A stretch of 56,326 nucleotides of DNA, taken from the IMG/VR virus record IMGVR_UViG_3300018083_000033, positions 1 through 56,326 of that record, one strand, 5' to 3'. This document shows positions 30,475 through 45,870 of this stretch, piece by piece. This stretch comes from a virus. Its lineage: Duplodnaviria; Caudoviricetes. Below the pieces are notes generated by a model, which was given only the letters and a program-made list of their open reading frames with translations, searched no databases and was not told the DNA's origin. The position numbers were made by a program, and so were the translations under genes. How positions within the stretch are numbered: position 1 is the first letter of the stretch; each line of letters begins with the position of its first letter.

Positions 30475-30552
30475 CGGATCAGCGCGTTGGTCGGCGCGGT
30501 AGCGCGCGGCTTTCGAGGGCAGCACAGGCTGACCATTCGCGACAGATCTTTT
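30475..30552 (-). repeat. Dispersed repeat copy C
   Basis: Reverse complement AAAAGATCTGTCGCGAATGG-N29-GCTACCGCGCCGACC...CGCTGATCCG. Confidence 0.8.
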
Positions 30553-30964
30553 ACCGGCACCGCGAGCAGGCGATCTTGGAATCCCGCACCTTGATCGGCG
30601 ACGTGCGGAAGAAGGGCCGCGCCTCATGGTAGCTGTCCAGATTCCTTTTGCAGTCTGGGCACTTCACCATCACGAGGCGCTGCGGCTGGTTCCATGTGGG
30701 CAGGGTGGCCGCGGCCGAAAGGCGAGAGAAGGCCCGCGCGAGGATGTCACGAATAGGGGACGCTTTGAGATGCACGCGGCCCAGATGGGCGGGAAGTGTG
30801 CCAGCTCGCCGTGACCGGCCCTGTCACTCGTTCTGGGGATGATGCTGGAGTCCGCTAGCTGCACGCCAAGGCTGAGCTAGTTGTTAAATTTTTTGACCGA
30901 ATTAAGTACCCCTTTGAACGGCTACACCTAGTCGGTATAACTTGCAGTCGCAACTTTTCCACTT

Positions 30965-31182
30965 TTACCCCTTCGGAGGCTTCCCGCGTGCCCCAGCGCC
31001 CCGGCCCGACTCTAGTAGCTTCTTCCTTCGCTCGGCCAGTAAACGCGGACCGGCGTTCGATGCGCGGGTATCGGGTGGTGTTCCGACAGGACCAACTCGA
31101 TGCGTGGTACCTGACGCGGCTGCTACTTCGCCTAAGTCCAGCTCGACGCCGCCAGTTAATGCTTCTGGGGGAATGTTTTCTT
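30965..31182 (-). pseudogene. Separated 3' part of the repressor gene
   Basis: Open frame (Q)ENIPPEALTGGVELDLG...KPPKG* in frame with the repressor if 31183-34680 is removed. Confidence 0.55.
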
Positions 31183-31429
31183 GGCACTGTCTCAGTTTGC
31201 CCTAGCGCTGCGCCTCACTGGACCGCAGACGACGCCAACGCCGAAGCGCGAAACCAATACCCGCCCACGCAAGAGACCAGATGGCGGGGTACAGAAATCC
31301 CTCCCTTGGAAGCGCCCAGACGCCGAGTGCGCTGACCAACCAAAGAGCGAACCAGTGCCAGCCCTTCATCGCTTCTGCCCTCGCCTGAGGAGTATCACCG
31401 ATTCACTGTGCGGTATGCGATACTCAGGC

Positions 31430-31669
31430 ATGCCTAAGCGGTCACGCAAGCGGGATCTGTCCGCCGATCCGAACGTCTCGGCCTTCAAGGTGCTTCAGCG
31501 CACGCTCGCTGATGCCAAGCCTGCAAAGAAGAAAAATCCAGCCGCTGTGGCCCTTGGCAGGCTTGGCGGGCTGAAGGGTGGCAAGTCTAGGGCCGAGAAA
31601 ATGACTGATGAGGAGCGGAGCGCTAGTGCGTCAGCCGCGGCGCGTGCAAGATGGGCACGCAAAGGTTAA
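31430..31669 (+). CDS. Small basic DNA-binding protein (KNPAAVALGRLGGLKGG type)
   Basis: MPKRSRK...KNPAAVALGRLGGLKGGKSRAEKMTDEERS...ARARW; start reassigned to ATG 31430. Confidence 0.8.
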   Translation: MPKRSRKRDLSADPNVSAFKVLQRTLADAKPAKKKNPAAVALGRLGGLKGGKSRAEKMTDEERSASASAAARARWARKG

Positions 31670-31685
31670 GCGTGACCGGTCACGC
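31670..31685. promoter_or_regulatory. Palindromic operator-like site
   Basis: Perfect palindrome GCGTGACCGGTCACGC, related to the 33404 site, next to TTGTCA-17-CATACT. Confidence 0.65.
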
Positions 31686-31725
31686 AAGTTGTCAATACTT
31701 GAACCGTGCTACATACTGGACGCAG

Positions 31726-32142
31726 ATGTCTAGTCTGGAAATGAGTCCACCGGTGGCTGCAATCGCTCAGTGGGGCGCGCCCTCGCAGCAGGGGGGATGG
31801 CTTGCGCTGGCCCCTGTCATCGTATTGGACTGGGAAGTCCATTCACACAACCGAGCAGGGATCGAAGCACTCTACAAGTTGGATTCAGTCATCGAAAGCT
31901 TCGACGACGATGACTTCGATCACGTGATCGAAGTCCTGACGAGCGTCCTTGGCACCATCGACGGGTACATTCAGATTCGCGGGACCGGCACGATGCTCCT
32001 ACGAAAGATCCGAAGCCAGCGCCAAATAGTCTCTCAGGCCATAGAAGCGCTAAAGCGCGGCTATGCGCCAGGAACTGTTCCGTCAGAATCTGATCGCCTG
32101 ACTATCGCAAGTTCGCGGTTGCGCGAAATCGGCATTCGCTAG
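31726..32142 (+). CDS. Hypothetical cargo protein
   Basis: ATG 31726 follows a promoter-like sequence. Confidence 0.55.
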   Translation: MSSLEMSPPVAAIAQWGAPSQQGGWLALAPVIVLDWEVHSHNRAGIEALYKLDSVIESFDDDDFDHVIEVLTSVLGTIDGYIQIRGTGTMLLRKIRSQRQIVSQAIEALKRGYAPGTVPSESDRLTIASSRLREIGIR

Positions 32143-32441
32143 GTGCGAGTGCGCCCGGTTACCCCAGCGCTTTTCAGGTACCCCCAGAAGTTATCGAAGT
32201 CGGACTTCTGCTCGCAAAGCGCCACTGCCAAGGCATCGGCATAGCGCCGTTTTGCTGTGGCGCTCATGTTGTAGAAGTAGTCCTGCATCAGCTCGCAAAA
32301 ACGGGCCTCAGCGTCCTCCTCTCCGCGAGCGTCTAGAATCCCAACTAGAGTCTTAGCCAGCATCGATATTGGCGCATCATCCGAAGCGTTCTCCGCTAGC
32401 TGACGCAGCTTGCGGCTCGAGATGGCATCGAAGAGTGTCAT
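32139..32441 (-). CDS. Hypothetical cargo protein
   Basis: Convergent 4-bp overlap with the previous gene; helical composition. Confidence 0.55.
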   Translation of the reverse strand: MTLFDAISSRKLRQLAENASDDAPISMLAKTLVGILDARGEEDAEARFCELMQDYFYNMSATAKRRYADALAVALCEQKSDFDNFWGYLKSAGVTGRTRT

Positions 32442-32446
32442 CCGGC

Positions 32447-33010
32447 CTACTTGTCGTCCGGCATCGGTGGCTCCGGCTCGTCCTCAATGTCGAGCGGTGG
32501 CTCGGCAGGAACGCTAGCAACAACTAACCCGGCGGGGTCTGGCCTGCTGGGCTTCACTGGGCGACGGCGTCCTGGGTACCATTCTGCCAGCGCCCAGTTT
32601 CGGCCAATGCGCACGACGTCTGCCTCGTCACGCTCGCGGCGATATAGAGCGGTATTCACTGTGTTGACAAAATTGCTTGACTGGTGATGGAAGTTGGCCG
32701 CTTCCAGTGCGTCGGTGATCTCCCGCGTCGTCTGCTGCTTCTTCACGATCTGCAGGTACCGGATCGCCGACTCGGCCAAATTCAGACCGAAGAAGGTATC
32801 AGGTGTCACAGATGCCGGATGAACGACAGCGCCACTGGGGACTGTGGCGGTCGCAATCACCTGCGGGCTGCCAGGCATGGCGGCGATGGCTCCCAGCACG
32901 TGCTTAATGCCGGCGATGGCTCCGTCCACTGCCGAGTTAAATGCCGCACGCTTTGCCTCTAAGTCGGCGACGACGGCTTCGTAGTCGATGGTCTGCTGCG
33001 GCATTTTCAT
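32447..33010 (-). CDS. Winged-helix protein with N-terminal coiled coil (HARE-HTH-like)
   Basis: YEAVVADLEAKR; AIRYLQIVKKQQTTREITDAL...NTVNTALYR...WALAEW. Confidence 0.7.
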   Translation of the reverse strand: MKMPQQTIDYEAVVADLEAKRAAFNSAVDGAIAGIKHVLGAIAAMPGSPQVIATATVPSGAVVHPASVTPDTFFGLNLAESAIRYLQIVKKQQTTREITDALEAANFHHQSSNFVNTVNTALYRRERDEADVVRIGRNWALAEWYPGRRRPVKPSRPDPAGLVVASVPAEPPLDIEDEPEPPMPDDK

Positions 33011-33039
33011 TGAAATCCTTCAGTAAATCGCGTATAAAT

Positions 33040-33187
33040 ACGAAAGCGGCAAGATCATGAGGGCCGGGGTTTCCCCCGGCCCACGCCCTTCATAGGGGCG
33101 GCGCTATTTCATGGTCCTCTCCCGCGATCAGGGGCGGTGCCGGGGTGAACTCTTGGAGGGGTTTCCCGGTTCCGTCCTTTCGTTTTC
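33040..33187 (+). ncRNA. Candidate structured small RNA
   Basis: TTGAAA-17-TATAAA upstream; nested hairpins; ends in a stem plus T-rich tract. Confidence 0.45.
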
Positions 33188-33397
33188 GATCCTACCACAA
33201 CAAAACGCTGATCTGCAGCCGCTCCACGATCTGGCCACATCATCAAGTCAAAGACTGATATCGAGGCCATGGATGGCATAGCCGTGAATATGCCGTATTT
33301 TTAGGCTGTTTCGGTCGATTCAACAGTGTCCAAAGAGTCATGCACTGCACTACAAGTCTTGCGTGACGTGGTTTCGTCGTGGTTGATATGGTTTCTA

Positions 33398-33426
33398 TTG
33401 ACAATGCGTGAGCGCTCACGCATAAT
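33398..33426 (+). promoter_or_regulatory. Transposase promoter with embedded 20-bp palindromic operator
   Basis: TTGACA-17-CATAAT; ATGCGTGAGCGCTCACGCAT at 33404-33423. Confidence 0.8.
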
Positions 33427-33435
33427 CACTCCATC

Positions 33436-34281
33436 ATGAACAAGCTGAACACGGCCAAGCGGACCCAGATCGTCAAGGCACTTGTTGAGGGCAATAGCCT
33501 GCGAAGCACGCAGCGCATGACCGGCGTTTCGATCAACACGATCACGAAACTGCTGGTCGATCTCGGCACGGCCTGCGAGGCATTTCATGATGCGGCCGTA
33601 CGCAACGTGCCCGCACAGCGCGTGCAGTGTGACGAGGTGTGGTGCTTCTGCTACGCGCGCAAGGAGAACCTGCCGGAAGAACTGCGCGGCGTGCACGGCT
33701 ACGGCGATCTCTGGACGTGGGTCGGCCAGTGCGCGGATTCTAAGCTCGTGATCTCGTGGCACGTCGGACGCCGCGATGCCGAGACGGCGCACCCGTTCAT
33801 GCACGATCTCGCCGCGCGTCTCTCGTCACGCGTACAGCTCACGACGGACGGTTGGGGCGTGTATCTGGAAGCGACCGATGCCGCGTTTGGCACGGACATC
33901 GACTATGCGAGATTGATAAAAGTGTACGGGAGCGACCCGAACGCGGAGCGCCGGTACGCGCCCCCCGTCTGCATCGAGACAAAGGTGCAGGTCGTCTCAG
34001 GCGACCCAGACATCGCGCACATCAGCACGTCCTACATCGAGCGGCAGAACCTTCAGATGCGGATGTCGATGCGTCGATTCACGCGCTTGACGAACGGCCA
34101 CAGCAAGAAGGTCGAGAATCACGAGCACGCCCTTGCGATTCACTACGTCCACTACAACTTCGCGCGTCCGCAGAAGGCGCTAAAGGGCACGCCTGCGATG
34201 GCGTGCGGCCTCGCTGACCGCGTGTGGTCAATGGAAGACGTCATTGGGCTGCTGGACGTGGCCGAGAAAAAAGCGGCGTAG
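33436..34281 (+). CDS. IS1-family DDE transposase (single ORF, intact)
   Basis: N-terminal HTH EGNSLRSTQRMTGVSINT, QCDEVW, WTWV, LTTDG, TSYIERQNLQMR..RRFTRLT. Confidence 0.92.
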   Translation: MNKLNTAKRTQIVKALVEGNSLRSTQRMTGVSINTITKLLVDLGTACEAFHDAAVRNVPAQRVQCDEVWCFCYARKENLPEELRGVHGYGDLWTWVGQCADSKLVISWHVGRRDAETAHPFMHDLAARLSSRVQLTTDGWGVYLEATDAAFGTDIDYARLIKVYGSDPNAERRYAPPVCIETKVQVVSGDPDIAHISTSYIERQNLQMRMSMRRFTRLTNGHSKKVENHEHALAIHYVHYNFARPQKALKGTPAMACGLADRVWSMEDVIGLLDVAEKKAA

Positions 34282-34284
34282 CCG

Positions 34285-34518
34285 ATGGTGAGGCCGCCCA
34301 CGGAAGCGCGTGCGATTGTTGCGGCATTGAGCCGCAACGTCCGCGCGCGCCGTCGCGCAGCCGGTCTGACTCAGGGCGCTTTGGCAAAGCGCGCCAGGTG
34401 CGCGCTCGCGTTCATCAGCTTGATCGAGCGAGGCAAGGCGAACCCTTCTCTCGTTACAATGGTGCTGATTGCGGGCGCGCTAGAATGCGCGGTGCCGGAT
34501 CTGCTCAGCGAGGCTTGA
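34285..34518 (+). CDS. XRE-family HTH regulator
   Basis: GLTQGALAKRA...FISLIERGKANPSL. Confidence 0.88.
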   Translation: MVRPPTEARAIVAALSRNVRARRRAAGLTQGALAKRARCALAFISLIERGKANPSLVTMVLIAGALECAVPDLLSEA

Positions 34519-34576
34519 TATGGGGATCGACATTCACGTCCACGACCAATACTTTGTCGTGACGCACTTCCATTAC

Positions 34577-35101
34577 CTACCCATCATCTTGGGTGTCGCG
34601 CTGCTCGCGTTCGGGGCGTGGAAACTCGCCAAGTTCCTCTGGTTGGCTCTGGGCAGCTAGGGTCAAACTGAGACAGTGCCGACGAAACATCCACGCTAGC
34701 ACAGGACGACGAACGCTCCGCGGCATCTTCCGAACCCGTGCGATGAGTTCTTCGGAGTCGCGATCCGGCATGGAGCCCACGAAATACTCGAGGATGTCCA
34801 GCCAGGCATCGCGGATCGTTGACGGCCAGTTCTGAAAGTGCCGGAGTAGTCGCATCTCGGACGGCGAGAGCTCGCGAATGATCGCGTCCTCGTGGCGGAC
34901 GAGCTCGCTGGGCGACATCCGCAGCTTCTCAGCGACGGCATCGAAGTCCTTCCACGGCAGGCCTTGTGTGCCCTTCAGGATGCCGGAGATCCACGCATCG
35001 TCATGGCCCACCCCGCGGCCGAGTTCGCGGGCGGTCATGCCGAGCTCGTCTAAACGTTCCTGAATCCGCACGCGCACGCGTGTTTTCACGTCTTTCCGCA
35101 T
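34577..35101 (-). CDS. CI-like repressor; C-terminus currently supplied by the transposon end
   Basis: HTH LGMTARELGRGVGHDDAWISGILKG; divergent from the cro-like gene; reads through the right TIR. Confidence 0.8.
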   Translation of the reverse strand: MRKDVKTRVRVRIQERLDELGMTARELGRGVGHDDAWISGILKGTQGLPWKDFDAVAEKLRMSPSELVRHEDAIIRELSPSEMRLLRHFQNWPSTIRDAWLDILEYFVGSMPDRDSEELIARVRKMPRSVRRPVLAWMFRRHCLSLTLAAQSQPEELGEFPRPEREQRDTQDDG

Positions 35102-35259: not shown

Positions 35260-35574
35260 ATGGAAATCACGCAGTCAGAGACGGCACCTCCGGCACCGAA
35301 GCTCTTTTCAGAGTTGCGCGCATGGATGGACCGCACGAACACGACGCAGGCGACATTGGCGCAATTCCTCGGCATTCGTGAGCCGCAGATGTCCCGCATG
35401 CTCAACGGCACGCGAGCGCTGGGCAGCGACTACGCCACGCGGCTGTCAGACCTCACCGGCATCCCTGTGGAAAAGCTGTTGACTGACAGATCGGCTATTC
35501 GACTCCTTAAGTTCTTAGGCAAACGCTCTAGAGTGTCCACCAAAAAGACTAAGGGGAAGCGCAGTGTCGCATAA
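35260..35574 (+). CDS. Cro-like HTH regulator
   Basis: TTQATLAQFLGIREPQMSRMLNGTR. Confidence 0.85.
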   Translation: MEITQSETAPPAPKLFSELRAWMDRTNTTQATLAQFLGIREPQMSRMLNGTRALGSDYATRLSDLTGIPVEKLLTDRSAIRLLKFLGKRSRVSTKKTKGKRSVA

Positions 35575-36139
35575 TACACGTGGTGTAAGCCTCGGGATTC
35601 CTGAAGTCGTATTCACTCCGCAGGACGCGGAGCGCTTCTGGTCGAAGGTGGAGCGGCAGGGTCCAATCCCTGCCCATCGGTTCGACCTCGGCCGGTGCTG
35701 GCAGTGGACCGCGAGCCTGATTGCGAGCCGCTACGGACAGTTTCGCATGCAGGCCAACGGCGCCTGTGGCAAACAGGTGACAGTTTACGCGCACCGACTG
35801 TCCTACATATTGTCGCACGGTCCCATCCCTGACGACCTGCAAGTTCTGCACGAGTGCGACAACACGCGCTGCGTCAATCCCGCCCACCTGAAGCTCGGCA
35901 CGCACAAATCAAACATGGAAGACGCCGCCGACCGGGGCCGGCTCCACGTGCCACGGCCGGGGCGCCAGCGGGTCACCGATGGTCAACTGGCCGAGATGCT
36001 GGCGCTCGTCTCTGCCGGCATGCCGCAATCCCACGTTGCCAAGCAGTTCGGCGTCAGCAAGGCGTACGTCACGCGCCTGCGGCAAGGTTCCCTCCGTCAA
36101 TACAGCCTGCCGCCTGTCGCGGCCGAGAAAGCGAGCTAG
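35564..36139 (+). CDS. HNH homing-type endonuclease
   Basis: RFWSKV, CWQW, AHRLSY, VLHECDNTRCVNPAHL..GTHKSNMED; C-terminal HTH. Confidence 0.92.
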   Translation: MSHNTRGVSLGIPEVVFTPQDAERFWSKVERQGPIPAHRFDLGRCWQWTASLIASRYGQFRMQANGACGKQVTVYAHRLSYILSHGPIPDDLQVLHECDNTRCVNPAHLKLGTHKSNMEDAADRGRLHVPRPGRQRVTDGQLAEMLALVSAGMPQSHVAKQFGVSKAYVTRLRQGSLRQYSLPPVAAEKAS

Positions 36140-36274: not shown

Positions 36275-36685
36275 ATGACAGCCATACACGTCCCCGTCGC
36301 GAATGGACAGACAGTGCCAGTTCGGGAGCCGCGGGCTACCGCGTCGGCGGCTGTCGCTGATTCGATCGTTGCTACGCACTCGCCGCTGCCGTGGCGCACA
36401 GAAACGCTGCTTGGCGACCAATACACCGCGGTGTGGGATGCGTGGAAGGACGGCCGCTGTTATCAGATCGCGAGGGTGTTCAATGATTGGCCGCGCAGTG
36501 GCGACATGAATGCCGAGTTCATCGTGCGCGCCTGCAACAACCATTACAGCCTGTGGTGGGCGATGCTCGCCGGTCGCGTTGCCTTGCAATCCCTCACTGA
36601 GGGCAGGATCGAAGAAGCGCGCGAGCGTGCCCATGACGCGCTGCGGCGCATAGATAAAGCCATCGTGAGAGCCGAGGCCCGCTAG
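36275..36685 (+). CDS. Hypothetical protein (N-terminus encoded by repeat A)
   Basis: HSPLPW...NAEFIVRACN motif common in phage early proteins. Confidence 0.7.
   Translation: MTAIHVPVANGQTVPVREPRATASAAVADSIVATHSPLPWRTETLLGDQYTAVWDAWKDGRCYQIARVFNDWPRSGDMNAEFIVRACNNHYSLWWAMLAGRVALQSLTEGRIEEARERAHDALRRIDKAIVRAEAR
36296..36367 (+). repeat. Dispersed repeat copy A
   Basis: GTCGCGAATGGACAG...GCTACCGCGTCGGCGGCTGTCGCTGATTCGATC. Confidence 0.85.
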
Positions 36686-36874
36686 ATGCCCGTCACCTAC
36701 ATCGACACCAGACTGGCCGGGGCGAGTGCGTGGTGCCCGTGGTGTGTCGGCTACTGCGGCGTGCGGATCGACAGCCAGCGCATGTTGTCCTGTGTCGAGT
36801 GCGGCTGTCCCCTGAGAGAACCCACCGCGCTGGAGCAGATGCAGCAGCGCAAGGCGTGGAAGGACGTGGCCTAA

Positions 36875-37276
36875 ATGACGAAAGAGGATTCGCGAATGGA
36901 CACGACGGGCGACTCCATCGACAGCCGTACCGCGTCGAAGGATCTGCCCATCGCCACCGCCCTGATTAAGGCCGCTGACTTGCTCGCCCGTCCAAATGCT
37001 TGGACGAGAAGCGTCTTTGCTCGCGATGCTGAGGGTAAGCCGCTCTCGTTCGGACATTCCAGTTTGGCCTGCCAGTGGTGCGTCTTGGGGGCGCTCGAAT
37101 CGGTCACGTTCAACTATCCGCTGATTCGCAACGGCGCGTGCAAGGTTCTCGGCGGCGTGCTGGGGATTGAGCCGTTCCAAGACGACATCGCGGACTGGAA
37201 CGACAACAGCACGCAAACCGAAGTCGTCGCCAAGTTGCGCGAAGCCGCTGCCCTCGCAGCCGCAGAGGGCCGATGA
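36875..37276 (+). CDS. DUF6197-like protein
   Basis: LIKAADLL...WT...WCVLGAL...WND...EVVAKLREAA. Confidence 0.7.
   Translation: MTKEDSRMDTTGDSIDSRTASKDLPIATALIKAADLLARPNAWTRSVFARDAEGKPLSFGHSSLACQWCVLGALESVTFNYPLIRNGACKVLGGVLGIEPFQDDIADWNDNSTQTEVVAKLREAAALAAAEGR
36880..36940 (+). repeat. Dispersed repeat copy F
   Basis: GAAAGAGGATTCGCGAATGGACAC...TACCGCGTCG. Confidence 0.7.
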
Positions 37277-37534
37277 CGCACGAGATGCGCTTAGCCCCGT
37301 CATGCGCGCGGCCGTCTGAGGAGCTCGCGGAGATCTGCGAGCAGTTGGGCGCGGTGGAGCCGGTTCCGCTCTTCCATCCGAGCCCGGTTGCAGTCCACAC
37401 AGTTACACAGTCGTTCGGCGTGGCATCGGTCGATCTCGCGCGGTTGGGAGTCGCGCTCGGTTCGGGGGTCATCCTCGCTGCACAGGGTCACGTAGCGAGG
37501 GCGGATAGGGTCAGCGAATTGAGCAGGTAACACC

Positions 37535-37888
37535 ATGAGCAAGGTTACGGCGGCGCTCGCAACTAGTCATCCCGTTTCTCTGGACATCGGGAAGGCGCGG
37601 ATGGCGAAAGCGGATGTCCAGCTTCCGGACATTGACTGGAACGGCGTGATTTCTTCAGCAATTCGACGCGCCGTGAAGGATGTCTGGGAAGACCACAAAG
37701 TCGCGGCAGGCGAAATCGGCGTGGACGCGAGCGAGTTTGGGAAGTGGTTGAACGGCACGCGGCGTCCCCAACTGGACAAGCTCTGGTCGATTGCGCGGTT
37801 GCGTCAGCCGCTCTGTGTGCGGTTCGCGCAGTTGGCCGGGGCAGAGATTCACACGCGGGTGGAATGGCCCGTTGAGAGGATCGCGTAG
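37535..37888 (+). CDS. CII-like HTH regulator
   Basis: KVAAGEIGVDASEFGKWLNGTRRP; early rightward arm. Confidence 0.65.
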   Translation: MSKVTAALATSHPVSLDIGKARMAKADVQLPDIDWNGVISSAIRRAVKDVWEDHKVAAGEIGVDASEFGKWLNGTRRPQLDKLWSIARLRQPLCVRFAQLAGAEIHTRVEWPVERIA

Positions 37889-38170
37889 ATGGCTCGCTGT
37901 TCCCGGTGCAAGACGTCGTTTCGCACAATGGAGGACGAGGCCGACATGCACGCCTGTCCATCGTGCGGGTTTGGCGAGCCGGAACCGCCACCGCCGGATC
38001 CGAACTGGTGTGTGTGCGGCTGTCACCGCGAGGACCACGAGGCCGGCGTGTGCATCATCGCGGAGGACTGCGGGTGTAGCGGGTATCGGCAGCAGGATGC
38101 GGACGACCTGATTGCGATCGACATTGTGGCCGCGCTAACGGCCAGCTTACAGGCGAGGGGTGGGCGATGA
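37889..38170 (+). CDS. Cys-rich hypothetical protein
   Basis: Multiple CxxC and CxC motifs. Confidence 0.5.
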
Positions 38171-39093
38171 GTGGAGCACTGGCGATAGTCGAGCCGTCGC
38201 ACGTCGCGACGTTCGACCGTGAACAGGTCGATCTGATTAAGCGGACGATCGCGAAGGGCGCGTCAGACGACGAGTTGGCGCTGTTCCTTCAGAACTGCAA
38301 GCGCACAGGGTTGGACCCGTTCCAGCGGCAGATCTACGCCGTCAAGCGGTGGTCGAGCACGGACAACCGCGAAGTGATGTCCACGCAAGTGAGCATTGAC
38401 GGCTTCCGGCTGGTGGCTGAGCGCACCGGGGCCTACGAAGGGCAGACCGCCCCGCAGTGGTGCGACAAAGACGGGGCGTGGGTGGATGTCTGGCTGAAGC
38501 CTGAGCCGCCCGCGGCGTCCCGTATTGGCGTCTGGAGGCAGGGATTCCGCGAGCCGGCCTACGGGGTGGCCCGCTTCGCCGCCTACGCCCAAACGAAGCG
38601 TGACGGCTCCCTGACGGCTATGTGGCAGCGGATGCCAGACGTGATGATCGCCAAGTGCGCCGAGGCGCTGGCGCTTCGCAAGGCGTTCCCACAGGAACTC
38701 TCCGGCCTCTACACGGGCGACGAGATGGGCCAGGCCGAGAACGGCAAGGCTCAGGCCCTCGTGCCGCCAGCACAGACGCGCATCGCCCTGCCAGCCGGCA
38801 CGGTGCAGATCCTTAAAGTGGACCCGCAGACGGCCCGCGGCGTGTCGTGGTGCGTGGTGACCTACGTCGATGCCGCTGGGGTCGAGAACACGTTGCCGAC
38901 GCCGGCAGACGGCAAGGAAGCAGCCCTCGCGCATTTCGAGGCGCTGCTGCAGGACGGCGAGCCGGTGGTGCTGGAAACGAGCGTGACGCCACGGTCGAAG
39001 AAGACCGTCATCACGAAGGCGACGAAGCACAGCACGATCGAGAACGCCGCGATTGACGCGGAAGTGGTCTCGAAGGATGCCGGCGCGTTCTAA
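38167..39093 (+). CDS. bet: Phage recombination protein Bet (RecT/Bet single-strand annealing family)
   Basis: [48 protein letters not shown]. Confidence 0.93.
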
Positions 39094-39588
39094 GGAATAC
39101 GCCCGCGAACATTACCGGCGGTGTCGTGAGGAGGGCAGATGCACGGTCTGTTTGAAGCCAGCGGCGCCGTTCGTGAGGTGCTTCCGGTGTCGAGTGAAGC
39201 ACAGCCAGCGGCAGGCGCGGTACGAGCAGCGGTTGAAGCATTGCCCGCCTCCACCTGTGAGCACGGATGGACCGTGACGTTACGCAAGGGCGTGATTTGT
39301 CTCGCCTGCGGTCACTTGGAGGCCAAGGGGCCGGCGAAGATTCTGAAATTTGTGAGGCCGTCATGAACTGGTGGAACGCGGAGCCGGGGGCGTTGATGAG
39401 CGACGACGAGCAGTACGACGAACCGCAGCCCGCGCCGTTGCGGATTCCCTGCCGGCGTCCTGACTGCCGACGGATGGCGGTGACGTTCGATCAGCCGTCC
39501 CAGACAGCCGTCTGCCGCGCGTGTCAGGACGTGCTGCAACGGTTGCGCGAGTTGAAACATTCAGCGGTGGCGTAGGGAGGCTACGACG

Positions 39589-39873
39589 ATGGACTTCTGT
39601 GCAAACGCGGGCGAGCCCTTCGTGGGCATGTCCTGTGACATCTGCGATCGAGAGATTGAGGCGGGGCAGGCGGTTCGGCACGACATCGACGGGGACGCGA
39701 CCGGCGTCAAGGTGCGTGCCCGGTGCGCCTGCTGCCACGACAAGGCGATTGAGATTGCCCGTGCGGCCCTGATGGTGGCCGAGGGGATCGCGCGGTGCTC
39801 GTCCAGTGCGGCGGTGGCGGCGGATTCGATCCTGTTGCATGCGCGGCTGCATGGGCATGAGGTGGCGGCGTGA
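39589..39873 (+). CDS. Cys-containing hypothetical protein
   Basis: GGAGG RBS; CDIC...CACC. Confidence 0.5.
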   Translation: MDFCANAGEPFVGMSCDICDREIEAGQAVRHDIDGDATGVKVRARCACCHDKAIEIARAALMVAEGIARCSSSAAVAADSILLHARLHGHEVAA

Positions 39874-40042
39874 CCCCACACCAGATGGCGTTCATTCGTT
39901 CCTGCCCTGACCACTGGATCGACATGGTGGAGAACATCCTGGCGATGTTTGAAGACTCAGGGGCGGCGTTGGCGGCGTTTCACGACGAACGGACACGGCG
40001 GCAGACGGCGAAGAAGGACGAACCGCGAGCGGGTGAGGCGGC

Positions 40043-40378
40043 GTGACCGTTCGCGACATGGTAGCGGCCATCTCCACAGAGCTGCGGGATACCGACGTCG
40101 CCCCGGAGCGTGCCGCACAGTTGCTCGCCAAGCTCACGGCGCTCCTCGGGAACTGCAATACCGAAATCCGGTTCGCCGATGCCTGTTACGCGGAAGTGCT
40201 GCTCACCTGTTTGACGACAGACGAAGCGGCCTCACGGGCCAAGATTCGCGCGGAGACCACGCCGCAGTATCAGCGCAAGCGGGAAGCGCGGGACACGAAG
40301 GAGCTCGTGATTGAGATGGTTCGGTCGCTGAAATATATCCTGCGGGCGGCTGAGGAAGAAATGAGGCTCAGCCGCTGA
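40043..40378 (+). CDS. Hypothetical coiled-coil protein
   Basis: Helical; coupled to the next gene. Confidence 0.6.
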   Translation: MTVRDMVAAISTELRDTDVAPERAAQLLAKLTALLGNCNTEIRFADACYAEVLLTCLTTDEAASRAKIRAETTPQYQRKREARDTKELVIEMVRSLKYILRAAEEEMRLSR

Positions 40379-40806
40379 TGGCAATCGATTACAGCGGCTT
40401 CGCCTTCCCGAAGGGCACGCCAGCCGGCGTCGCACGTCACCAGCGGAAGGCCGCGAAGGCGGACCAGCTCGCCGAGGCGTATGCGGTGGTCGATACCCGC
40501 GATCAGTCCTATTGCCGCGTGACGGGCCGGCACACGGTCCCTGCGGCGGTGGATCCGCGCGTGCGGCGTGAGCATCATCACCTGAAGGGCCGGCGCGTGA
40601 TGCCCGAGTGGCGGCACGACCCCAAGCGCATCGTGACGGTGTGCAAGCAGGCGCACGATCTGATTACGGCGGGCTGGATTGTGGTGGAAGGGCTTGACGC
40701 CGACAAGCCGCACGGGCTGCGCTTTCACTGGAAGGAAGGGCTCGACCCAAAGATGAAGATTCTGGTCATCAAAAGCCGCCGACGTTCGCAGCAGGAGGCC
40801 GAATGA
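40378..40806 (+). CDS. HNH-like protein
   Basis: RDQSYCRVTG...EHHHL...IVTVCKQAHDLI. Confidence 0.65.
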   Translation: MAIDYSGFAFPKGTPAGVARHQRKAAKADQLAEAYAVVDTRDQSYCRVTGRHTVPAAVDPRVRREHHHLKGRRVMPEWRHDPKRIVTVCKQAHDLITAGWIVVEGLDADKPHGLRFHWKEGLDPKMKILVIKSRRRSQQEAE

Positions 40807-41000
40807 GCCCAGACATTTCGATGTGTCCCGACATGCAGTGCCCCCAGGCGCGGGACTGTTACCGCAGCCCAACGAGTGGGACGGTGCCCGATCCGCTGCG
40901 GCAGTCCTGGCTGGAGCGCTCGCCTCGGCCGAGTGGGGCGGATCGCTGTTATCTCTACTGGTCGATCACGGCGGCGACGACGCCGAAGGATGCCGCGTGA
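40803..41000 (+). CDS. Small Cys-rich hypothetical protein
   Basis: DISMC...CPQARDCYR motif. Confidence 0.6.
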   Translation: MSPDISMCPDMQCPQARDCYRSPTSGTVPDPLRQSWLERSPRPSGADRCYLYWSITAATTPKDAA

Positions 41001-41473
41001 GCATAGTCGCGATCGATCCGGGCTGCGACCGGAGCGCGTGGATCCGCTACGACGGCCGTCGCGTGGTCGGTCACGGCAAGGAGGACAACGCCGAGATGCT
41101 GGATAGCGTGCTCGCACAGGCCGTCTTGGAGGGCGAGCGCGTCATCATCGAGCAGATCGCGAGCTACGGTATGCCGGTGGGCGCGGAGGTGTTCGCCACG
41201 GTGTTCTGGGCGGGCCGGTTCGCCCAGCGCGTCGGCTTCTACGACCTGATGCCTCGCAAGGCGGTCAAGTTGCACCTCTGCGGGCAGACGAAGGCGAAGG
41301 ACAGCAACATCCGCCAAGCCCTGATCGACAGGTTCGGCGGGAAGGACCAGGCCATCGGCAAGAAGGCCACGCCGGGGCCGCTCTACGGCATCAAGGCGGA
41401 CGAGTGGCAAGCCTTGGCCCTGGCGGTGACTTGGCACGACTTGAAGGTGGCGAATGCACGCAATCCCTTCTGA
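40997..41473 (+). CDS. RuvC-like Holliday junction resolvase
   Basis: IVAIDPG, VIIEQ, K..LCG..KAKD, DEWQALALA; GTG start 40997. Confidence 0.8.
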   Translation: MSIVAIDPGCDRSAWIRYDGRRVVGHGKEDNAEMLDSVLAQAVLEGERVIIEQIASYGMPVGAEVFATVFWAGRFAQRVGFYDLMPRKAVKLHLCGQTKAKDSNIRQALIDRFGGKDQAIGKKATPGPLYGIKADEWQALALAVTWHDLKVANARNPF

Positions 41474-41512
41474 GGCGGATGTGCAGGAGTTGATACACAA
41501 GGGGAAGGTGAC

Positions 41513-41767
41513 GTGGTAGAGCACGACAAAGATCAGTCGCGAATGGACAGTTCGTGCCAACTCGCGGGGCAGCGGGCTACCGCGCCGACCGCCGTCGCTG
41601 ATTCGATCAAGTTCCTGCGCCTGCTGTTGTCCGATTGTGGGGAAGGGGCGAACGAGCACGGCTGGCGTGAGTGTCCGCGCTGCCTCGCGTTCGACTTGTT
41701 GCAGAACCGTGACCGCACGGCATTGCGGCTGATTAAGTCGGCCGTCAAGGCGCTGGAGTGCCGTTGA
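41513..41767 (+). CDS. Hypothetical protein (N-terminus encoded by repeat B)
   Basis: ORF overlapping the methyltransferase start. Confidence 0.5.
   Translation: MVEHDKDQSRMDSSCQLAGQRATAPTAVADSIKFLRLLLSDCGEGANEHGWRECPRCLAFDLLQNRDRTALRLIKSAVKALECR
41528..41608 (+). repeat. Dispersed repeat copy B
   Basis: AAAGATCAGTCGCGAATGGACAG...GCTACCGCGCCGACCGCCGTCGCTGATTCGATC. Confidence 0.85.
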
Positions 41768-42573
41768 CGCCCTACTATCAAGATGCGGCCGTGACGTTGG
41801 TTCTCGGTGACTGCTTGGATGTCATGTCTGATCTGCCGCCGGTCGATCACGTCATCACAGATCCGCCGTATGCGTTGGTGGTTGTTAACAGCTCGAAGGG
41901 TGCGCCTCGCGGCAGTATCGGCGCGCAAGAGCGCAGGGATCTCGGTTACGCAGGCGTCACCGATGACCAGCGGATAGCGGCCGGGGCGCATATTGGACGG
42001 CTGGCCCAACGATGGGCGCTGGTGTTCTGTGACGCGGAGAGCCTGACGTCGTGGCGTATGGCGCTCGAGGCTGGCGGCATGAAACACGCGCGCATGGGTG
42101 CGTGGGTGTCACCGGCTTGCACGCCGCAATTCACAGGGGACAGGCCTGGAACGGGCTGGGAAGCCTGCGAGATCGCGCACGCATCCAACGGGCGGTGGCG
42201 GTGGAACGGTGGCGGGCAACCGGCTGTGTGGGTGTTCAATCGGCCGATTAACGGCACGCTGGAGCGCCTACAGGCGTCACACCCGACACCGAAGCCGCTG
42301 GCCCTGCTCGACACCATCGTGCAGCAATTCACCGACCCTGGAGACGTAATCCTCGACCCGTTCGCCGGGAGCGGCACGACGCTGATCGCTGCCAAGCGGC
42401 TCGGGCGCAGGGCCATCGGCATTGAGGCGAACGAGCAATACGCCGAAACCATCGCCCGCCGTCTTTCTCAAGGGGCGCTGGAACTATTCGGAGCCTCCGA
42501 TGCGGTAGATCCCCATGCCGGTAGCACGGGAAAGCCGCCCACGCGCGACGGCGATCTTTTGGAATCGGCCTGA
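41758..42573 (+). CDS. Orphan DNA N6-adenine/N4-cytosine methyltransferase (beta class)
   Basis: GDCL, TDPPY, HPTPKP, LDPFAGSGTT. Confidence 0.93.
   Translation: MPLTPYYQDAAVTLVLGDCLDVMSDLPPVDHVITDPPYALVVVNSSKGAPRGSIGAQERRDLGYAGVTDDQRIAAGAHIGRLAQRWALVFCDAESLTSWRMALEAGGMKHARMGAWVSPACTPQFTGDRPGTGWEACEIAHASNGRWRWNGGGQPAVWVFNRPINGTLERLQASHPTPKPLALLDTIVQQFTDPGDVILDPFAGSGTTLIAAKRLGRRAIGIEANEQYAETIARRLSQGALELFGASDAVDPHAGSTGKPPTRDGDLLESA
42493..42560 (-). repeat. Dispersed repeat copy G (degenerate)
   Basis: Reverse complement AAAAGATCGCCGTCGCGCGTGG-N29-TCTACCGCATCGGAGGC. Confidence 0.6.
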
Positions 42574-42605
42574 AGTTGTCGGAGTTCGATCACTAGGTAA
42601 CAGAG

Positions 42606-42666
42606 AAGAGAAGACCTCTGCGCGGCGAGCCACGAGACGCTGATTCGATGCAACACGCCACCGCGG
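42606..42666 (+). repeat. Dispersed repeat copy H (degenerate)
   Basis: AAGACCTCTGCGCG...GCCACCGCG with family spacing; also contains CGCTGATTCGAT. Confidence 0.45.
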
Positions 42667-42690
42667 GGAAGAACGAGCCGGAGCGAACAA

Positions 42691-42924
42691 ATGACCGTGT
42701 ACGTGTTGAGAGATCTCGGCAACGGCGAAGGCCGGAAATATATCTGGTGGCACACGTCAAGCGTGAAGGCCGACCAGCAACACCGCAGGCATGCCGCAAC
42801 GCCATCTCGGTTCTCTCCGCTGTCGGCGCGGGAAGATGTGGCGTTCGCTGAGTTGTCCTCGGACTATGAGCCCATCGCTGGTTGTCTGTCGCCGAACTAC
42901 TGGAAGAGGAAGGACGGGCGGTGA
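42691..42924 (+). CDS. Hypothetical protein
   Basis: GGAG RBS; protein-like composition. Confidence 0.5.
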   Translation: MTVYVLRDLGNGEGRKYIWWHTSSVKADQQHRRHAATPSRFSPLSAREDVAFAELSSDYEPIAGCLSPNYWKRKDGR

Positions 42925-43517
42925 CTGGTGACAGACCAGCGAGGGAGCGGGAAGCGCGGCAAGGCGCCGCGTGCTCGTTCACGGGGAACACTCGGCGGAG
43001 CAGACCCTGACAATGCCGGTGAGGTTGTTTACCAAGACCGGCGCCCGTCATAACCGCAGGCTTATGATCTCGGCAAGATCATAAACGGAATGAATTGGAC
43101 AAGGTGGGCTGAGGTGGGAAATACTGGGGCGAACCGAGTCAGGGGTTGTGACCCTGCCCGGTTCATGCTGACAGGCGGTGTGGGACCGCTGCCAGTGCCC
43201 TACGCGATTCTCCCACACAACACATCACAGCGCATCCCGAGCAGCACGGCGGCGGGCGGGAATGCGTGCAAGCCCCTTACCCGGCGACTGCACAGGGGGC
43301 AGCGTGGAGCGCAATCCTAGAGCGCGCAGGGTGCCCCGATCAGCGGGGCCGAGAGTCTGGGAAGCGGAGCGGGCTGTATCCGAGACTCCGCCCGAAGGTG
43401 ACGGCCGAACGCCGAAAGGCATGGCACTGATCTCGAGGTGGCGCTACCCCAGTGCGGCGGTAGCTTTGCCTCGGCTCAAACCAAACAACCGAAGGCATCG
43501 CATACAGAACTAGAGGA
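42925..43517 (+). other. Hairpin-dense, apparently non-coding region (candidate origin or structured RNA)
   Basis: Many stems; no convincing ORF; precedes the replication gene. Confidence 0.5.
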
Positions 43518-43859
43518 TTGATGCTGCCAGAGTTTGAGGAACGCCGAGCAGTGGAACGGAGACGTGAGGCCGACGCGAACTTCCTGCGGTTCTGGGAGGC
43601 CTACCCCAGACGGCAAGCCAGGATCGACGCGGTGAAGGCGTGGAACCAGATTCGGCCGGATGCTGGAACCGTGGAGGCCATCTTAGCGGCCTTGGAATGG
43701 CAGCGGGAGACATGGGACAGCCCACAGTTCATTCCGTTACCAGCCTCGTATCTGCGCGGGCATCGCTGGGAGGACGAGCGGCCGGAGCAGCCCGCCAGCA
43801 AGTCCATGAGTGCGGGAGCCGCGGCGGTGTTTCGGGTGTTAGGAGGGAAGGCGTCGTGA
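43518..43859 (+). CDS. Replication initiator C-terminal-domain protein
   Basis: FLRFWEAYPRR...AVKAW...FIPLPASYLRGHRWEDE. Confidence 0.8.
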   Translation: MMLPEFEERRAVERRREADANFLRFWEAYPRRQARIDAVKAWNQIRPDAGTVEAILAALEWQRETWDSPQFIPLPASYLRGHRWEDERPEQPASKSMSAGAAAVFRVLGGKAS

Positions 43860-44107
43860 TGCTGTGCGGAGAGTGCCGGCACTACCAGCCAGCAGAACTC
43901 GATATCTGCTTGACCACGCCGGAGGAATGCACGCACCCGGCCACCGCTGCCGTCGATGTGGTGACCGGCAAGCGGTCGCGTGTGTGCCCTCGGGCTGCTC
44001 GGCGCGGCGCATGTGGGCCGGAGGCCGCGCTGTTTGAGGCGCGTCCGCCCGAGCCGCCATCGCGCGGCCTGTTTGAGTGGCTCCGCGATCGATGGGTGCG
44101 GATGTGA
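43859..44107 (+). CDS. Cys-rich hypothetical protein
   Basis: CGECRHY...CTHP...CGPEAALF. Confidence 0.55.
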   Translation: MLCGECRHYQPAELDICLTTPEECTHPATAAVDVVTGKRSRVCPRAARRGACGPEAALFEARPPEPPSRGLFEWLRDRWVRM

Positions 44108-44385
44108 CGCTCGTCGCGCATATGGCCCGCAAGTGGGACTCGAAGGGCGAAGCGAGCCTGCGGGCAGCACAGGCGGCGTTTCGGCAGTATCGCGGCGAGG
44201 ATGGCTACGCGGAGCGCGAGGCGGCGATTGCGGCGCTGCCGGTGGCAGAGTGGAAGGGCCGTCAGCTTCGTGCGTTCCGCTGCCACGGCGAGACAGGTAA
44301 GGGGCCGCATGACGTGAACGTGCCGGAGTCGCTACTGTGGGTGCTTATTGGATTGGACCGCTGGAAATGTCCGTATCACGCATAG
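44104..44385 (+). CDS. Hypothetical protein
   Basis: GTGA-coupled. Confidence 0.5.
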   Translation: MTLVAHMARKWDSKGEASLRAAQAAFRQYRGEDGYAEREAAIAALPVAEWKGRQLRAFRCHGETGKGPHDVNVPESLLWVLIGLDRWKCPYHA

Positions 44386-44454
44386 CCGCCGACGCGGTAG
44401 CAAGTGCGGTCGAGTAACCACAGGCTGTCCATTCGCGCAGAAGTCTTGTCTTTC
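44372..44454 (-). repeat. Dispersed repeat copy D
   Basis: Reverse complement GAAAGACAAGACTTCTGCGCGAATGGACAG...GCTACCGCGTCGGCGGC...GTGATACG. Confidence 0.85.
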
Positions 44455-44490
44455 GTGTTGGGTATGGGTGTGAGGGAAGCGGGAGGCGTC

Positions 44491-44766
44491 GTGAGCGAGT
44501 GGCAACCGATTGAGACAGCGCCGAAGATGCGGAAGGTGATTGTGTTCTACCGCAACGCGCTGGGCAATGGGCGTTGCGTGATGGCGTGCGATTACGCGGC
44601 CCATTCACTCGAAATGCACGACGACTATGCCGACGTGGCCGAGTTCGAAGGGGAGACGTCCTATGCGCCGGCCGGTTGGTATGAGGAGCATGAGGCGGAC
44701 GAGCCGTTGATGCCCCTCAGTGAACGGCCAACCCACTGGATGCCCTTACCGGAGCCTCCCAAGTGA
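44491..44766 (+). CDS. DUF551-like protein
   Basis: SEWQPIETAPK...PTHWMPLPEPP. Confidence 0.85.
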   Translation: MSEWQPIETAPKMRKVIVFYRNALGNGRCVMACDYAAHSLEMHDDYADVAEFEGETSYAPAGWYEEHEADEPLMPLSERPTHWMPLPEPPK

Positions 44767-45209
44767 ACGAGACGCGCGAGATTGGGATGGCGCTGGCGAC
44801 ACTGGCGGAAGCGTACGGGCTTCGAGACCTGACCCCAGCCCGGATCAAAATCTACGAGCGGGCGCTGAAGAAGATCCCGGTGGCCTTACTGAGTCCGATG
44901 GTCGAGCACTGCATCGACACCCGGAAGCCGTATGGGCGGGACTGGTTGCCGAGCGTGGAAGAACTCAGGGCGGATGCGGAGTGGGCACGGCAGGACATCT
45001 TAAAGCGCACGCCCTATGAAATGTGCGCGCAATGCGAGGACAGCCAGGGCTGGCTCGAGATCGAGCAGGACGGGGTGAAGCGGCTACGTCGCTGCTCGTG
45101 CAGGGCCGCATATTTGGCAAAGCTAGACGGCCTCGGGGCGATCGGAGAGACGTTGAGCCTGCCGCCTGTGCAGGAGTTTCGGCAACTGACGGCCGGGGAG
45201 ATGGACTGA
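44763..45209 (+). CDS. Putative helicase loader/inhibitor-like replication protein
   Basis: LAEAYG...IYERAL...WLPSVEELR then a CxxC...CxC zinc site. Confidence 0.55.
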   Translation: MNETREIGMALATLAEAYGLRDLTPARIKIYERALKKIPVALLSPMVEHCIDTRKPYGRDWLPSVEELRADAEWARQDILKRTPYEMCAQCEDSQGWLEIEQDGVKRLRRCSCRAAYLAKLDGLGAIGETLSLPPVQEFRQLTAGEMD

Positions 45210-45384
45210 TGCCACAGGTCGATCATTCTGTGTGGGTTCTGATGTGGAAATACTTTGACGGTTCAGCCTTTGAGGTGGTGCGAGCCTACACCAGCCAAGA
45301 GCGCGCCGCAGAGGACTTCGAACTCGTGGCAAAGAACGAGGACGCCAAGAAGTGGGAGCTCAAACAGGTGCCGTGGTATCAGCG

Positions 45385-45828
45385 ATGAGCCTCGACGCCG
45401 ACGACATCAGCCAGCAGATCGACGCCCATCTGAAGCGCATCAGGGCAGAAGGGCAATTCAGGGTAGACGGCTGGGCGGGCTATGCCTGCGAGTTGATGCC
45501 CGATATGGACGACCGCTGCCGGATCTGCCACGAGCGGGAAGCGGGACGAGGGCGGCGGGTGTGCCATCGCTGCGAGCGGGCCTCGAGGGGCACGCCAAGG
45601 GTGCCCGTCCTGAAGCCCTACGTGCCCGAACTGGAGCGCGGGAGGGGACGGCCCAAGGGTGAGCCCAAGCCCGTCCTGATGTGCCGTGTGTGCCACATCT
45701 ACCGGCCCGCCAAGCATCGGACGCGGTGTAGCAAATGTCTGCATAAGGCGAGACTGGCGAATGGCTACAACGAGAAGCGCAGCGAAGCACGCAAAGCGGC
45801 CGGCGCGGTAGCACGGGAGGCGGAATGA
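45385..45828 (+). CDS. Cys-rich hypothetical protein
   Basis: Four CxxC motifs; AT-hook-like GRGRPK. Confidence 0.55.
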   Translation: MSLDADDISQQIDAHLKRIRAEGQFRVDGWAGYACELMPDMDDRCRICHEREAGRGRRVCHRCERASRGTPRVPVLKPYVPELERGRGRPKGEPKPVLMCRVCHIYRPAKHRTRCSKCLHKARLANGYNEKRSEARKAAGAVAREAE

Positions 45829-45870
45829 CTCTCAGGGTACGCCATCGCGCAGAAGGCTCTAAGTCTTTCT
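45783..45870 (-). repeat. Dispersed repeat copy E
   Basis: Reverse complement AAAGACTTAGAGCCTTCTGCGCGATGG-N29-GCTACCGCGCCGGCCGC. Confidence 0.7.

Follow-up and report, generated by a model that had tools for sequence, protein, structure and literature searches.

A dispersed two-box repeat at accessory-gene junctions of uncultivated tailed phages, tentatively read as the ends of transposase-less gene cassettes

What is the role of a short repeat that recurs at the junctions of small accessory genes in an uncultivated phage? This question is raised by the IMG/VR virus record IMGVR_UViG_3300018083_000033, the whole of which (56,326 bases, G+C content 62.7%, rated 100% complete) was analyzed and is called the window here. 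Genes for the small and large terminase subunits, a putative tape-measure open reading frame (ORF) and several HNH endonuclease genes identified it as a tailed phage. The repeat is ~80 bases long and contains two conserved boxes. It belongs to an apparently undescribed family that extends beyond the window to other uncultivated high-GC tailed phages. In the reading favored here, to which a probability of about 45% is assigned, its copies are the ends of gene cassettes that lack a transposase and are delimited by long imperfect inverted repeats, resembling mobile insertion cassettes (MICs) or gene-carrying elements similar to bacterial interspersed mosaic elements (BIMEs) or MITEs (miniature inverted-repeat transposable elements).

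Six main copies had been listed in the original prediction, and all of them were recovered at the expected positions (Table 1). Two models were used for this: R1, a sequence-only covariance model made from the six copies and two copies from outside the window, and R2, a second sequence model built from 22 copies. R1 scored the six copies at 43.8-69.1 bits, with the next best match in the window at 11.8 bits. With R2 the six copies scored 39.5-62.7 bits and a seventh, copy G, 36 bits, and the best match in the window outside the family reached 9.2 bits. As both models were trained on copies from the window, these scores are partly given by construction, and exact motifs were therefore also counted. 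Box 1 (CGCGAATGG) occurred seven times in the window against 1.33 expected, and box 2 (CTACCGCGYCG) six times against 0.16 expected; in neither case did any of 100 shuffled sequences reach the observed count. The pairs B/D, E/F, A/D, B/E and D/F were also recovered independently by a general repeat finder.

Copy G had been called degenerate. It could be identified as a genuine member of a second (G-type) subfamily, of which copies were found independently in other records. A second copy described as degenerate, H, could not be supported statistically (R1 2.3 bits, E 8.8; missing from the R2 and nhmmer lists). By eye, it consists of a 5' purine tract with GCGCG followed by the 3' end GCTGATTCG-ATG, with the middle missing. 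All window copies are located at gene junctions within 30-46 kb and on both strands, and no copy lies in the structural half, as had been described. The region from ~29.5 to 52 kb contains small early and accessory genes, including those for CI- and Cro-like HTH proteins, an HNH endonuclease, RecT, a RuvC-like resolvase, an N6/N4 DNA methyltransferase, DUF6197 and DUF551.

Table 1. Repeat copies in the window and the methyltransferase gene carried between copies D and G.
Feature	Position	Strand	Orientation and context	Score or match
Copy A, A-type	30472..30554	-	sense, between minus-strand ORFs 30551-30775 and 30043-30459	R2 58.8, R1 58.8 bits
Copy B, A-type	36292..36367	+	sense, within 5' end of ORF 36275-36685, translated ..RATASAAVADSI..	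R2 58.2 bits
Copy C, A-type	36877..36948	+	sense, more diverged	R2 39.5 bits
Copy D, A-type	41523..41608	+	sense, left end of the unit D - gene 41513-41767 - methyltransferase - G	R2 62.7 bits
DNA methyltransferase	41758..42573	+	cargo of the D...G unit	phrog_67 over residues 4-248 of 271
Copy G, G-type	42480..42561	-	antisense to genes, right end of the D...G unit	R2 36, nhmmer 35 bits
Possible copy H	42606..42666	+	possible internally deleted sense copy, by eye only	not significant in R1, R2 or nhmmer
Copy E, A-type	44372..44453	-	antisense, between ORF 44077-44385 (stop inside repeat) and DUF551 gene 44404/44491-44766	R2 61.9 bits
Copy F, A-type	45780..45860	-	antisense, encodes tail ..AAGAVAREAE (then stop) of ORF 45352-45828; precedes gene 45886-46461	R2 51.9 bits

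In its own sense direction, a copy runs from a purine-rich tract through box 1, a variable core of ~30 nt and box 2 to a 3' stretch, and is 65-95 nt long in total. The family consensus is CGCG[A/C][A/G]TGG for box 1 and [G/T]CTACCGCG for box 2. In the G-type subfamily, box 1 reads CGCGCGTGG and box 2 GGGGATCTACCGC; copy G shares the form TCGCGCGTGG...GGGGATCTACCGC with the copies L161b and L161c and with many copies from IMG/VR. The two boxes are nearly invariant across 22 aligned copies and the remainder drifts, while the core is of almost constant length, with 43-48 nt from the start of box 1 to the end of box 2 in 63 distinct copies. Many sense-oriented copies end in ..GAGGTGATTCG with ATG or GTG directly after, and this 3' stretch is presumably an extended Shine-Dalgarno sequence, judged by the 3' end of 16S rRNA. 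The sequence following box 2 is either S-type or T-type, and showed a weak association with orientation (13:3 vs 10:10).

Searches of other phages with sequence models derived from the copies, as the original prediction had proposed, identified non-orthologous copies. In a single nhmmer round against the window plus 71 fetched loci, 83 copies in 37 loci were listed; after one duplicate locus had been removed, this left 81 non-redundant copies in 36 records from viruses or metagenomes, with 2-7 copies per phage. Copies were accepted as family members at scores of at least 28 bits, and most of them reached at least 37 bits. In IMG/VR, the exact two-box pattern was present in 18 stretches, which were all inspected and of which 13 were scored; two of them were family members (62.8 and 52.7 bits). 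The two-box pattern gave 79 stretches in metagenome contigs, 13 of them at 28-63 bits, of which two repeat the record of L016 and one repeats L162. The G-type pattern was found in 45 IMG/VR stretches, many with multiple copies, and a scan for box 2 with TGATTCG gave 12 stretches. Among 65 IMG/VR stretches with ATGG and box 2, no new member above 20.4 bits was identified. When 185,579 genomes of bacteria and archaea were scanned once with the A-type two-box pattern, 28 stretches were returned (best R1 score 26 bits), none of which was accepted as a member. Relatives collected on the basis of RecT (13 loci) contained just one weak copy, in L025.

No close or near-identical relative of the window phage was present in the INPHARED phage set, and its closest terminase matches were less than 44% identical. 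The window and the phage records G001 and G002 have few proteins in common, which are 29-52% identical, yet their repeats are ~75-80% identical in nucleotides. The only matches at E<=0.01 in G001 and G002 (two and three, respectively) adjoin methyltransferase genes, and another ten partial matches, which are weaker (E 0.024-0.83, at most 10.8 bits), are located elsewhere in these records. In the complete record G004, five of six matches lie at 2.9-10.1 kb, and in the complete record G007 all three lie at 32.3-34.5 kb. A search of a limited literature set for phage intergenic repeats and for the motif strings, the latter matching only unrelated primers, yielded nothing relevant.

The orientation of the copies was then related to the neighboring genes, which outside the window were called crudely, with a simple codon-usage caller trained on the window. 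Thirty-seven copies were sense, 41 antisense and 3 undetermined. For sense copies, the stop of the upstream gene lies a median of 42 nt before the repeat and the next start a median of 18 nt after it. In 24 of 37 cases, an antisense copy extends over the end of its upstream gene (median overlap 46 nt); for antisense copies, the following gene starts a median of 64 nt downstream. Neighboring copies alternate in orientation in 33 of 42 pairs (binomial p 1.4e-4). Sense-then-antisense pairs (21) are separated by a median gap of 385 nt (range 154-1794) and antisense-then-sense pairs (12) by 932 nt (one-sided Mann-Whitney p 0.016 for the difference); the neighbors with the same orientation comprise six pairs with both copies antisense and three with both sense. 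The alternation, together with the short sense-to-antisense gaps, indicates a recurrent unit of a sense copy, one or two small genes and an inverted copy. Such units span 298-1938 nt, with the box 2 sides of the repeats facing inward and the purine-rich sides outward. Two units, both involving weak copies, are nearly empty (gaps of 17 nt in L140 and 162 nt in L162). The variable cores of partners were 0.613 alike, compared with 0.562 for other pairs (p 0.006, from the 17 of 21 pairs whose cores could be used).

The genes within the units are diverse. Ten cargo proteins were scanned against Pfam, of which one was an N6/N4 methylase, one contained a SLOG/YspA domain and one a DUF7694 domain; seven gave no match. 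No gene family occurred more often in the fetched stretches than DNA methyltransferases, of which several kinds were present (10 of 36 records). In the window, copy D, a small gene, the methyltransferase gene and copy G form a unit of this kind (41523-42561), preceded by a RuvC-like gene (40823-41473). The last ~25 residues of the methyltransferase (..GASDAVDPHAGSTGKPPTRDGDLLESA) are encoded by the inverted copy G and lie outside the recognized domain. H and E may form another unit. In L017, which belongs to G002, a copy occupies the same place as copy E, before a DUF551-like gene.

The ends of the repeat mesh with the translation of adjacent genes on both sides. Copy C provides the DUF6197 gene (36875-37276) with a purine-rich tract resembling a ribosome-binding site (RBS) and with an ATG at 36896, the ATG of box 1, and the DUF6197 domain begins at residue 23 of 133, directly after the copy. 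The genes at copies B and D read through the repeat as ..RATA[SP].AVADSI... In these two copies (36361-36372 and 41602-41613), the usual start context ..GATTCG-ATG is GATTCG-ATC and the Shine-Dalgarno part is lost; the downstream genes start upstream and read through the repeat, as if it had been captured into the N-terminus. At the other end of the units, an open frame of at least 50 codons runs into box 2 in 36 of the 41 antisense copies; four of the remaining five have no such frame and one has no recognizable box 2. Box 2 is entered in one and the same frame by 28 of these 36 open frames, which gives rise to tails of the type ..ADAVDPHVTDSGKPSTRDGRS (binomial p 6e-8 relative to one third). 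Of the others, six stop at the TAG of box 2 and two use the third frame.

Taken as a cassette, a unit would comprise the sense copy upstream of a gene, one or two small accessory genes and the inverted copy over the 3' end of the last gene. The repeats would be substrates for the gain, loss or swap of cassettes between co-infecting phages, brought about in trans by an enzyme for which phage RecT/RuvC-type recombination, an HNH nuclease and a host enzyme are candidates. Cassette boundaries or a miniature mobile element had been among the functions proposed originally, and they fit best to the position at junctions, the alternation and the inverted pairs around accessory genes; from these features we infer that the units move. 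The clustering of the copies in one part of each genome, the diverse cargo, the slightly greater likeness of partner cores and the high identity of the repeats between phages with diverged proteins likewise favor this reading. A more elaborate version appears doubtful at present. It describes an integrase-less phage cassette system with strand-asymmetric inverted ends of ~90 nt, in which the left copy would give the RBS and start context and the right copy the frame, tail and stop, and any ORF placed between them would be expressed in the early operon. The ends would be recognized as folded single strands or via the two boxes, and an enzyme (host HUH/RAYT-like or a phage HNH/RecT pathway) would move cassettes, especially those with DNA methyltransferases, between unrelated phages. 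The gain or swap of accessory genes in phages is usually attributed to illegitimate recombination. Transposable elements are reportedly rare in phages. For MITEs, a presence in 0.01% of viral sequences has been given (PMC11602168).

A number of observations weigh against mobile cassettes. Within the window, a scoring partner is missing for five of the seven copies (A, B, C, E and F). No high-identity empty site was found, and the four combinations of element and flank for which both flanks were present elsewhere were all of low identity. Flanking direct repeats, as expected for a target-site duplication, were not detected by inspection of 23 pairs, for which no formal search was made. Defined termini were not found either: single copies contain no consistent terminal inverted repeat, and the outermost purine tract is, unlike transposon ends, the least conserved part. 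That the two internal boxes and not the ends are most conserved suggests sequence-specific recognition or a function in place. Since the cores of partners are only ~61% alike, the units do not represent recent transpositions. Alternation by itself could also result from direct repeats deleting one another. The copies of L025 and L130 share a degenerate box 2 (CTTACCGCA), which implies that they descended vertically with the methyltransferase gene. An accompanying recombinase or HUH enzyme, which the original prediction had suggested looking for, could not be identified. A Y1/HUH transposase (PF01797) was found in none of six phage records including the window, a tyrosine recombinase (PF00589) was absent from the window, G004 and G001 and present in G007 and G005, and the IS1-like transposase of the window, its only transposase, is missing from G001-G003 (0 of 3).

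Indirect evidence for movement comes from members of one gene family that occur with their repeat in different arrangements. L241 contains a methyltransferase gene with an antisense copy followed by a RuvC-like gene, and in the window the order is RuvC-like gene, copy D, small gene, and methyltransferase gene with copy G. In L025 and L130, a sense copy directly precedes the orthologous methyltransferase genes, and the window has an extra gene between them; in L025, the methyltransferase and replication genes are present and the copy at the position of G is missing. Contigs of four DNA sequencing runs contained no informative joint when compared with the window. One contig, X5, joins 36324 to 41569, with only 23 letters on one side, and probably represents another repeat copy. 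A difference between the otherwise identical IMG/VR records L237 (9370-9438) and L257 was considered as presence or absence of the element and rejected, as it is an 87-nt in-frame indel with a flanking 18-nt direct repeat within the gene that follows a repeat copy, and not a repeat itself.

With respect to possible enzymes, AP2-type HNH endonucleases are encoded in the window, G001, G002 and L154; HNH endonucleases are common in phages. The HNH gene just upstream of copy B (35564-36139, at a distance of 150 nt) has homologs in G001, G002 and L154. A TnpB/OrfB_IS605 gene with a Cas12f-like TNB domain is located in L130 (6696-7784, in G001), 270 nt from the strongest copy of that phage, and none was seen among the scanned ORFs of the window. 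The window itself contains a 30-nt inverted repeat (31173-31202 and 34661-34690; 87% complementary, ~36 nt on inspection) that brackets 3.5 kb with an IS1-family DDE transposase gene (33436-34281; Pfam 30.6 bits, cut-off 24.1), which is preceded by a near-consensus sigma-70 promoter (33398-33426). This stretch (31173-34690) may be a transposon with passenger genes or may carry paired operators. Contigs of the source run break at ~33.7-34.1 kb, where many variant short contigs are found, which fits a sequence that is repeated elsewhere in the community. A link between the repeat and the IS1-like transposase was also considered, as copy B shares the 11-nt sequence TGGCACTGTCT with the arms at 31173 and 34661, but R2 does not match the arms, the transposase is missing from G001-G003, and the link was rejected.

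The main rival to mobile cassettes, possible but on balance unlikely, is that the copies are cis-acting elements working in place, similar to repetitive extragenic palindromic (REP) sequences and BIMEs or to enterobacterial repetitive intergenic consensus (ERIC) sequences. They could be protein binding sites on box 1 and box 2 or RNA elements in a long early transcript. The regulatory sites named as an alternative in the original prediction are thereby a live rival. In the RNA version, the sense copy would pair with the inverted copy past the gene, and the long-range duplex would insulate or stabilize the cistron or mark it for processing. The copies are strictly intercistronic and their orientation alternates as in BIMEs (PMC2817692). 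The contrast between invariant boxes and drifting remainder fits such a function, as do the slightly greater likeness of partner cores and the persistence of orthologous copies upstream of orthologous methyltransferases. To our knowledge, no protein binds the boxes.

Predicted folding bears on this explanation in both directions. In 51 G-type copies, the own sense strand of the segment from box 1 to box 2 folded better than shuffled sequences (mean z ~-1, t = -6.0, copies not independent), a test that overstates the evidence, as these copies are not only related to each other but also all have the same fixed closing stem (CGCG-C-GTGGA with TCTAC-CGCG). The G-type antisense strand folded no better than shuffles. 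The sense-strand signal was present whichever way the copy faces the genes (z -1.21 for sense and -0.85 for antisense copies); it thus follows the strand of the element and not the transcribed strand, which argues against a local mRNA hairpin as the function. The A-type copies, to which six of the seven window copies belong, folded no better than shuffles (single-fold z -1.79 to +0.15 for these six), and the box 1-to-box 2 segment of 17 A-type copies showed no excess folding (t = 0.16). RNAalifold on 9, 22 and 63 copies detected no covariation. The boxes had been predicted to pair with each other, and this reduces to the invariant CGCG/CGCG stem, which shows no compensatory change and to which the consensus fold is limited.

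Known signals could not be assigned to the copies. The scan for sigma-70 promoters and intrinsic terminators remained at chance level, with four promoter-like sites in 29.4-48.0 kb against 3.4 expected and none in a copy, which speaks against a function in place, and no sigma-54 or ECF promoter match was seen by eye. Rfam, a match to which had been named as refuting the original prediction, gave none over the whole window on both strands, and a tRNA search of the window found none. A conserved small ORF starting at the ATG or GTG of box 1 was rejected, as the ORF lengths range from 4 to 159 codons and the frame from box 1 to box 2 differs among copies; an antisense start 'MTIR..' is used only in L140 and L154.

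Two further explanations start from the antisense strand of box 2. In the first, which we regard as improbable, the inverted copy is chiefly a coding module that supplies diverse accessory proteins with a C-terminal peptide (..E.PQS[VA][DA]AVDP.., in many cases with ..PSTR[DE] and a serine run after it), which could be a tag for degradation, targeting or packaging, and sense copies are by-products of inverted duplication. The common reading frame in 28 of 36 cases is in favor of this, and the tails fall outside the recognized domains of the methyltransferases and of the DUF7694 protein. However, the length of the tails and the position of the stop vary widely, the orientation that is not translated is equally well conserved (37 sense vs 41 antisense copies), and high-GC DNA yields long spurious open frames. 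Moreover, in GCG GTA GAT the third codon position varies as little as the first and second, which indicates a constraint on the nucleotides and not only on the peptide.

The second explanation, which seems slightly less probable still, is a signal similar to the operon polarity suppressor (ops) element, in which a core on the non-template strand would recruit a host RfaH-type NusG paralog after each inserted gene and thereby suppress downstream polarity. The antisense strand of box 2 reads CGCGGTAG, of which the core GCGGTAG equals positions 2-8 of E. coli ops and the A-type form GCGGTAGC positions 2-9. The sequences of ops12 (GGCGGTAGnnTG) and ops9 and the roles of C3:G8, G5 and T6 are given in PMC5995543, and compared with these the shared core includes the RfaH-contacting bases and the C3:G8 pair. 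The matching heptamer is the most invariant part of the repeat. Eight additional weak R2 copies (14.9-28.4 bits) were sense-oriented according to a hand reading of the ORF and gene tables, and the weakest R2 training copies are copy C (39.5 bits, sense), the L025 copy (32.9 bits, sense) and copy G (36 bits, antisense); this hand-made tally suggests at most that antisense copies are better preserved. On the other hand, of the 78 oriented copies only 41 carry the motif on the coding strand, positions 10-12 including the pause-inducing TG (11-12) are not conserved by eye, and no NusG-like gene was present in the window or G001-G003 (0 of 4 phage records). The match of 7-8 nt was also noticed after the fact and carries a real look-elsewhere cost.

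The attC-like hairpins of the original prediction, i.e., folded single strands recombined by a tyrosine recombinase in an integron-like system, share with the repeat the location at cassette boundaries and conserved ends around a variable center, and the G-type copies show a strand-specific fold. Such hairpins are nevertheless very improbable and are not supported for the window, as attC sites have one orientation whereas 37 sense and 41 antisense copies are found here, no covariation supports a hairpin, A-type copies fold like shuffles, the window contains no HUH/Y1 enzyme, neither the window nor the complete record G004 encodes a tyrosine recombinase, and the R''/R' core motifs of attC sites do not occur in the consensus. 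The family as a whole may still represent a folded single-strand substrate, given the strand-specific fold of the G-type copies.

Among known systems, the architecture of the units appears closest to MICs as these are generally described. MICs, such as IS231/MIC231 of Bacillus cereus, consist of inverted repeats around passenger genes without a transposase. Both have inverted repeats around one or a few passenger genes, no internal transposase, several units per genome and diverse cargo. Unlike for MICs, no parent insertion sequence or transposase with matching ends and no target-site duplication were found here. The repeats are long (65-95 nt) with conservation of internal boxes instead of tips, and the units are located in phage operons where the left repeat ends at the RBS of the cargo. 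MITEs differ in that a single copy of the repeat has no consistent terminal inverted repeat.

REP sequences are palindromic units of 20-40 bp that carry, at one of their ends, a GTAG (or CGTC) tag that stays unpaired (PMC3733652). Like REPs and BIMEs (PMC3733652 and PMC2817692), the repeat is extragenic or intercistronic, mostly downstream of coding regions, with neighbors often in opposite orientation; it has an invariant GTAG on one strand beside a palindromic segment, some copies are translated within genes, and both are suspected to be non-autonomous mobile elements. In these sources, REPs are high-copy elements of bacterial chromosomes with a RAYT gene, whereas the repeat has 65-95 nt and 2-7 copies per phage. 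Moreover, its predicted fold pairs GTAG with GTGG instead of leaving an unpaired tag, and only G-type copies fold. The alternating orientation agrees with REP/BIME elements. Membership in the REP family is not established: no RAYT gene was found in six phage records, and no bacterial copy in the single scan with the A-type pattern. From REP/BIME elements and MICs alike, the repeat differs in unit length, in its confinement to phages at low copy number, in the lack of a known enzyme and in the meshing of its ends with the translation signals of the cargo.

Other dispersed phage and bacterial elements are less similar. As generally described, the PeSL cassettes of T4-type phages and the 'boundary sequences' of lambdoid phages are also short conserved borders of accessory genes in a plastic region, for which modular shuffling has been proposed. 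PeSLs, however, carry an early promoter and have one orientation, whereas the repeat shows no promoter signal, alternates and is unrelated in sequence. The start-associated sequences and stoperators of mycobacteriophages and the mycobacterial MIRUs are likewise dispersed short intercistronic repeats near translation starts, but these either are shorter, with 13-17 nt, or occur in tandem, and they face one way relative to transcription.

Several features of the window were observed outside the repeat. Three clear HNH endonuclease genes are present (35564-36139, 51862-52728 and 55701-56069), with a weak fourth match at 40378-40806. The 1163-codon ORF mentioned above is taken as the tape-measure gene from its length and position. 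ORF 53102-55372 (756 codons, without family match) contains diverged repeats at 53880-55180 that correspond to the repeat-finder families D1-D3 and D6 and are spaced by multiples of 6 nt, often 66 nt, which suggests a repetitive fiber-like or surface protein. Downstream of the methyltransferase gene, no convincing ORF was identified at 42574-43517 (~940 nt). For the following ORF 43518-43859, the match to phage replication-initiation proteins is confined to their C-terminal part (phrog_270, profile positions 164-264 of 383), and a homolog of the ORF product in G002 has 291 residues. The stretch 42574-43859 could be a broken or remodeled replication gene, an origin region or an unrecognized RNA.

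If the units are indeed mobile cassettes, 2-7 copies per genome bracketing single accessory genes in many unrelated environmental phages would represent a concrete and testable substrate for modular exchange, with a cargo that includes anti-restriction-type methyltransferases. The repeat would then also serve annotators as a marker for cassette borders, for true start codons and for artificial C-terminal tails. If the copies instead act where they are, they would represent the phage equivalent of REP/BIME elements.

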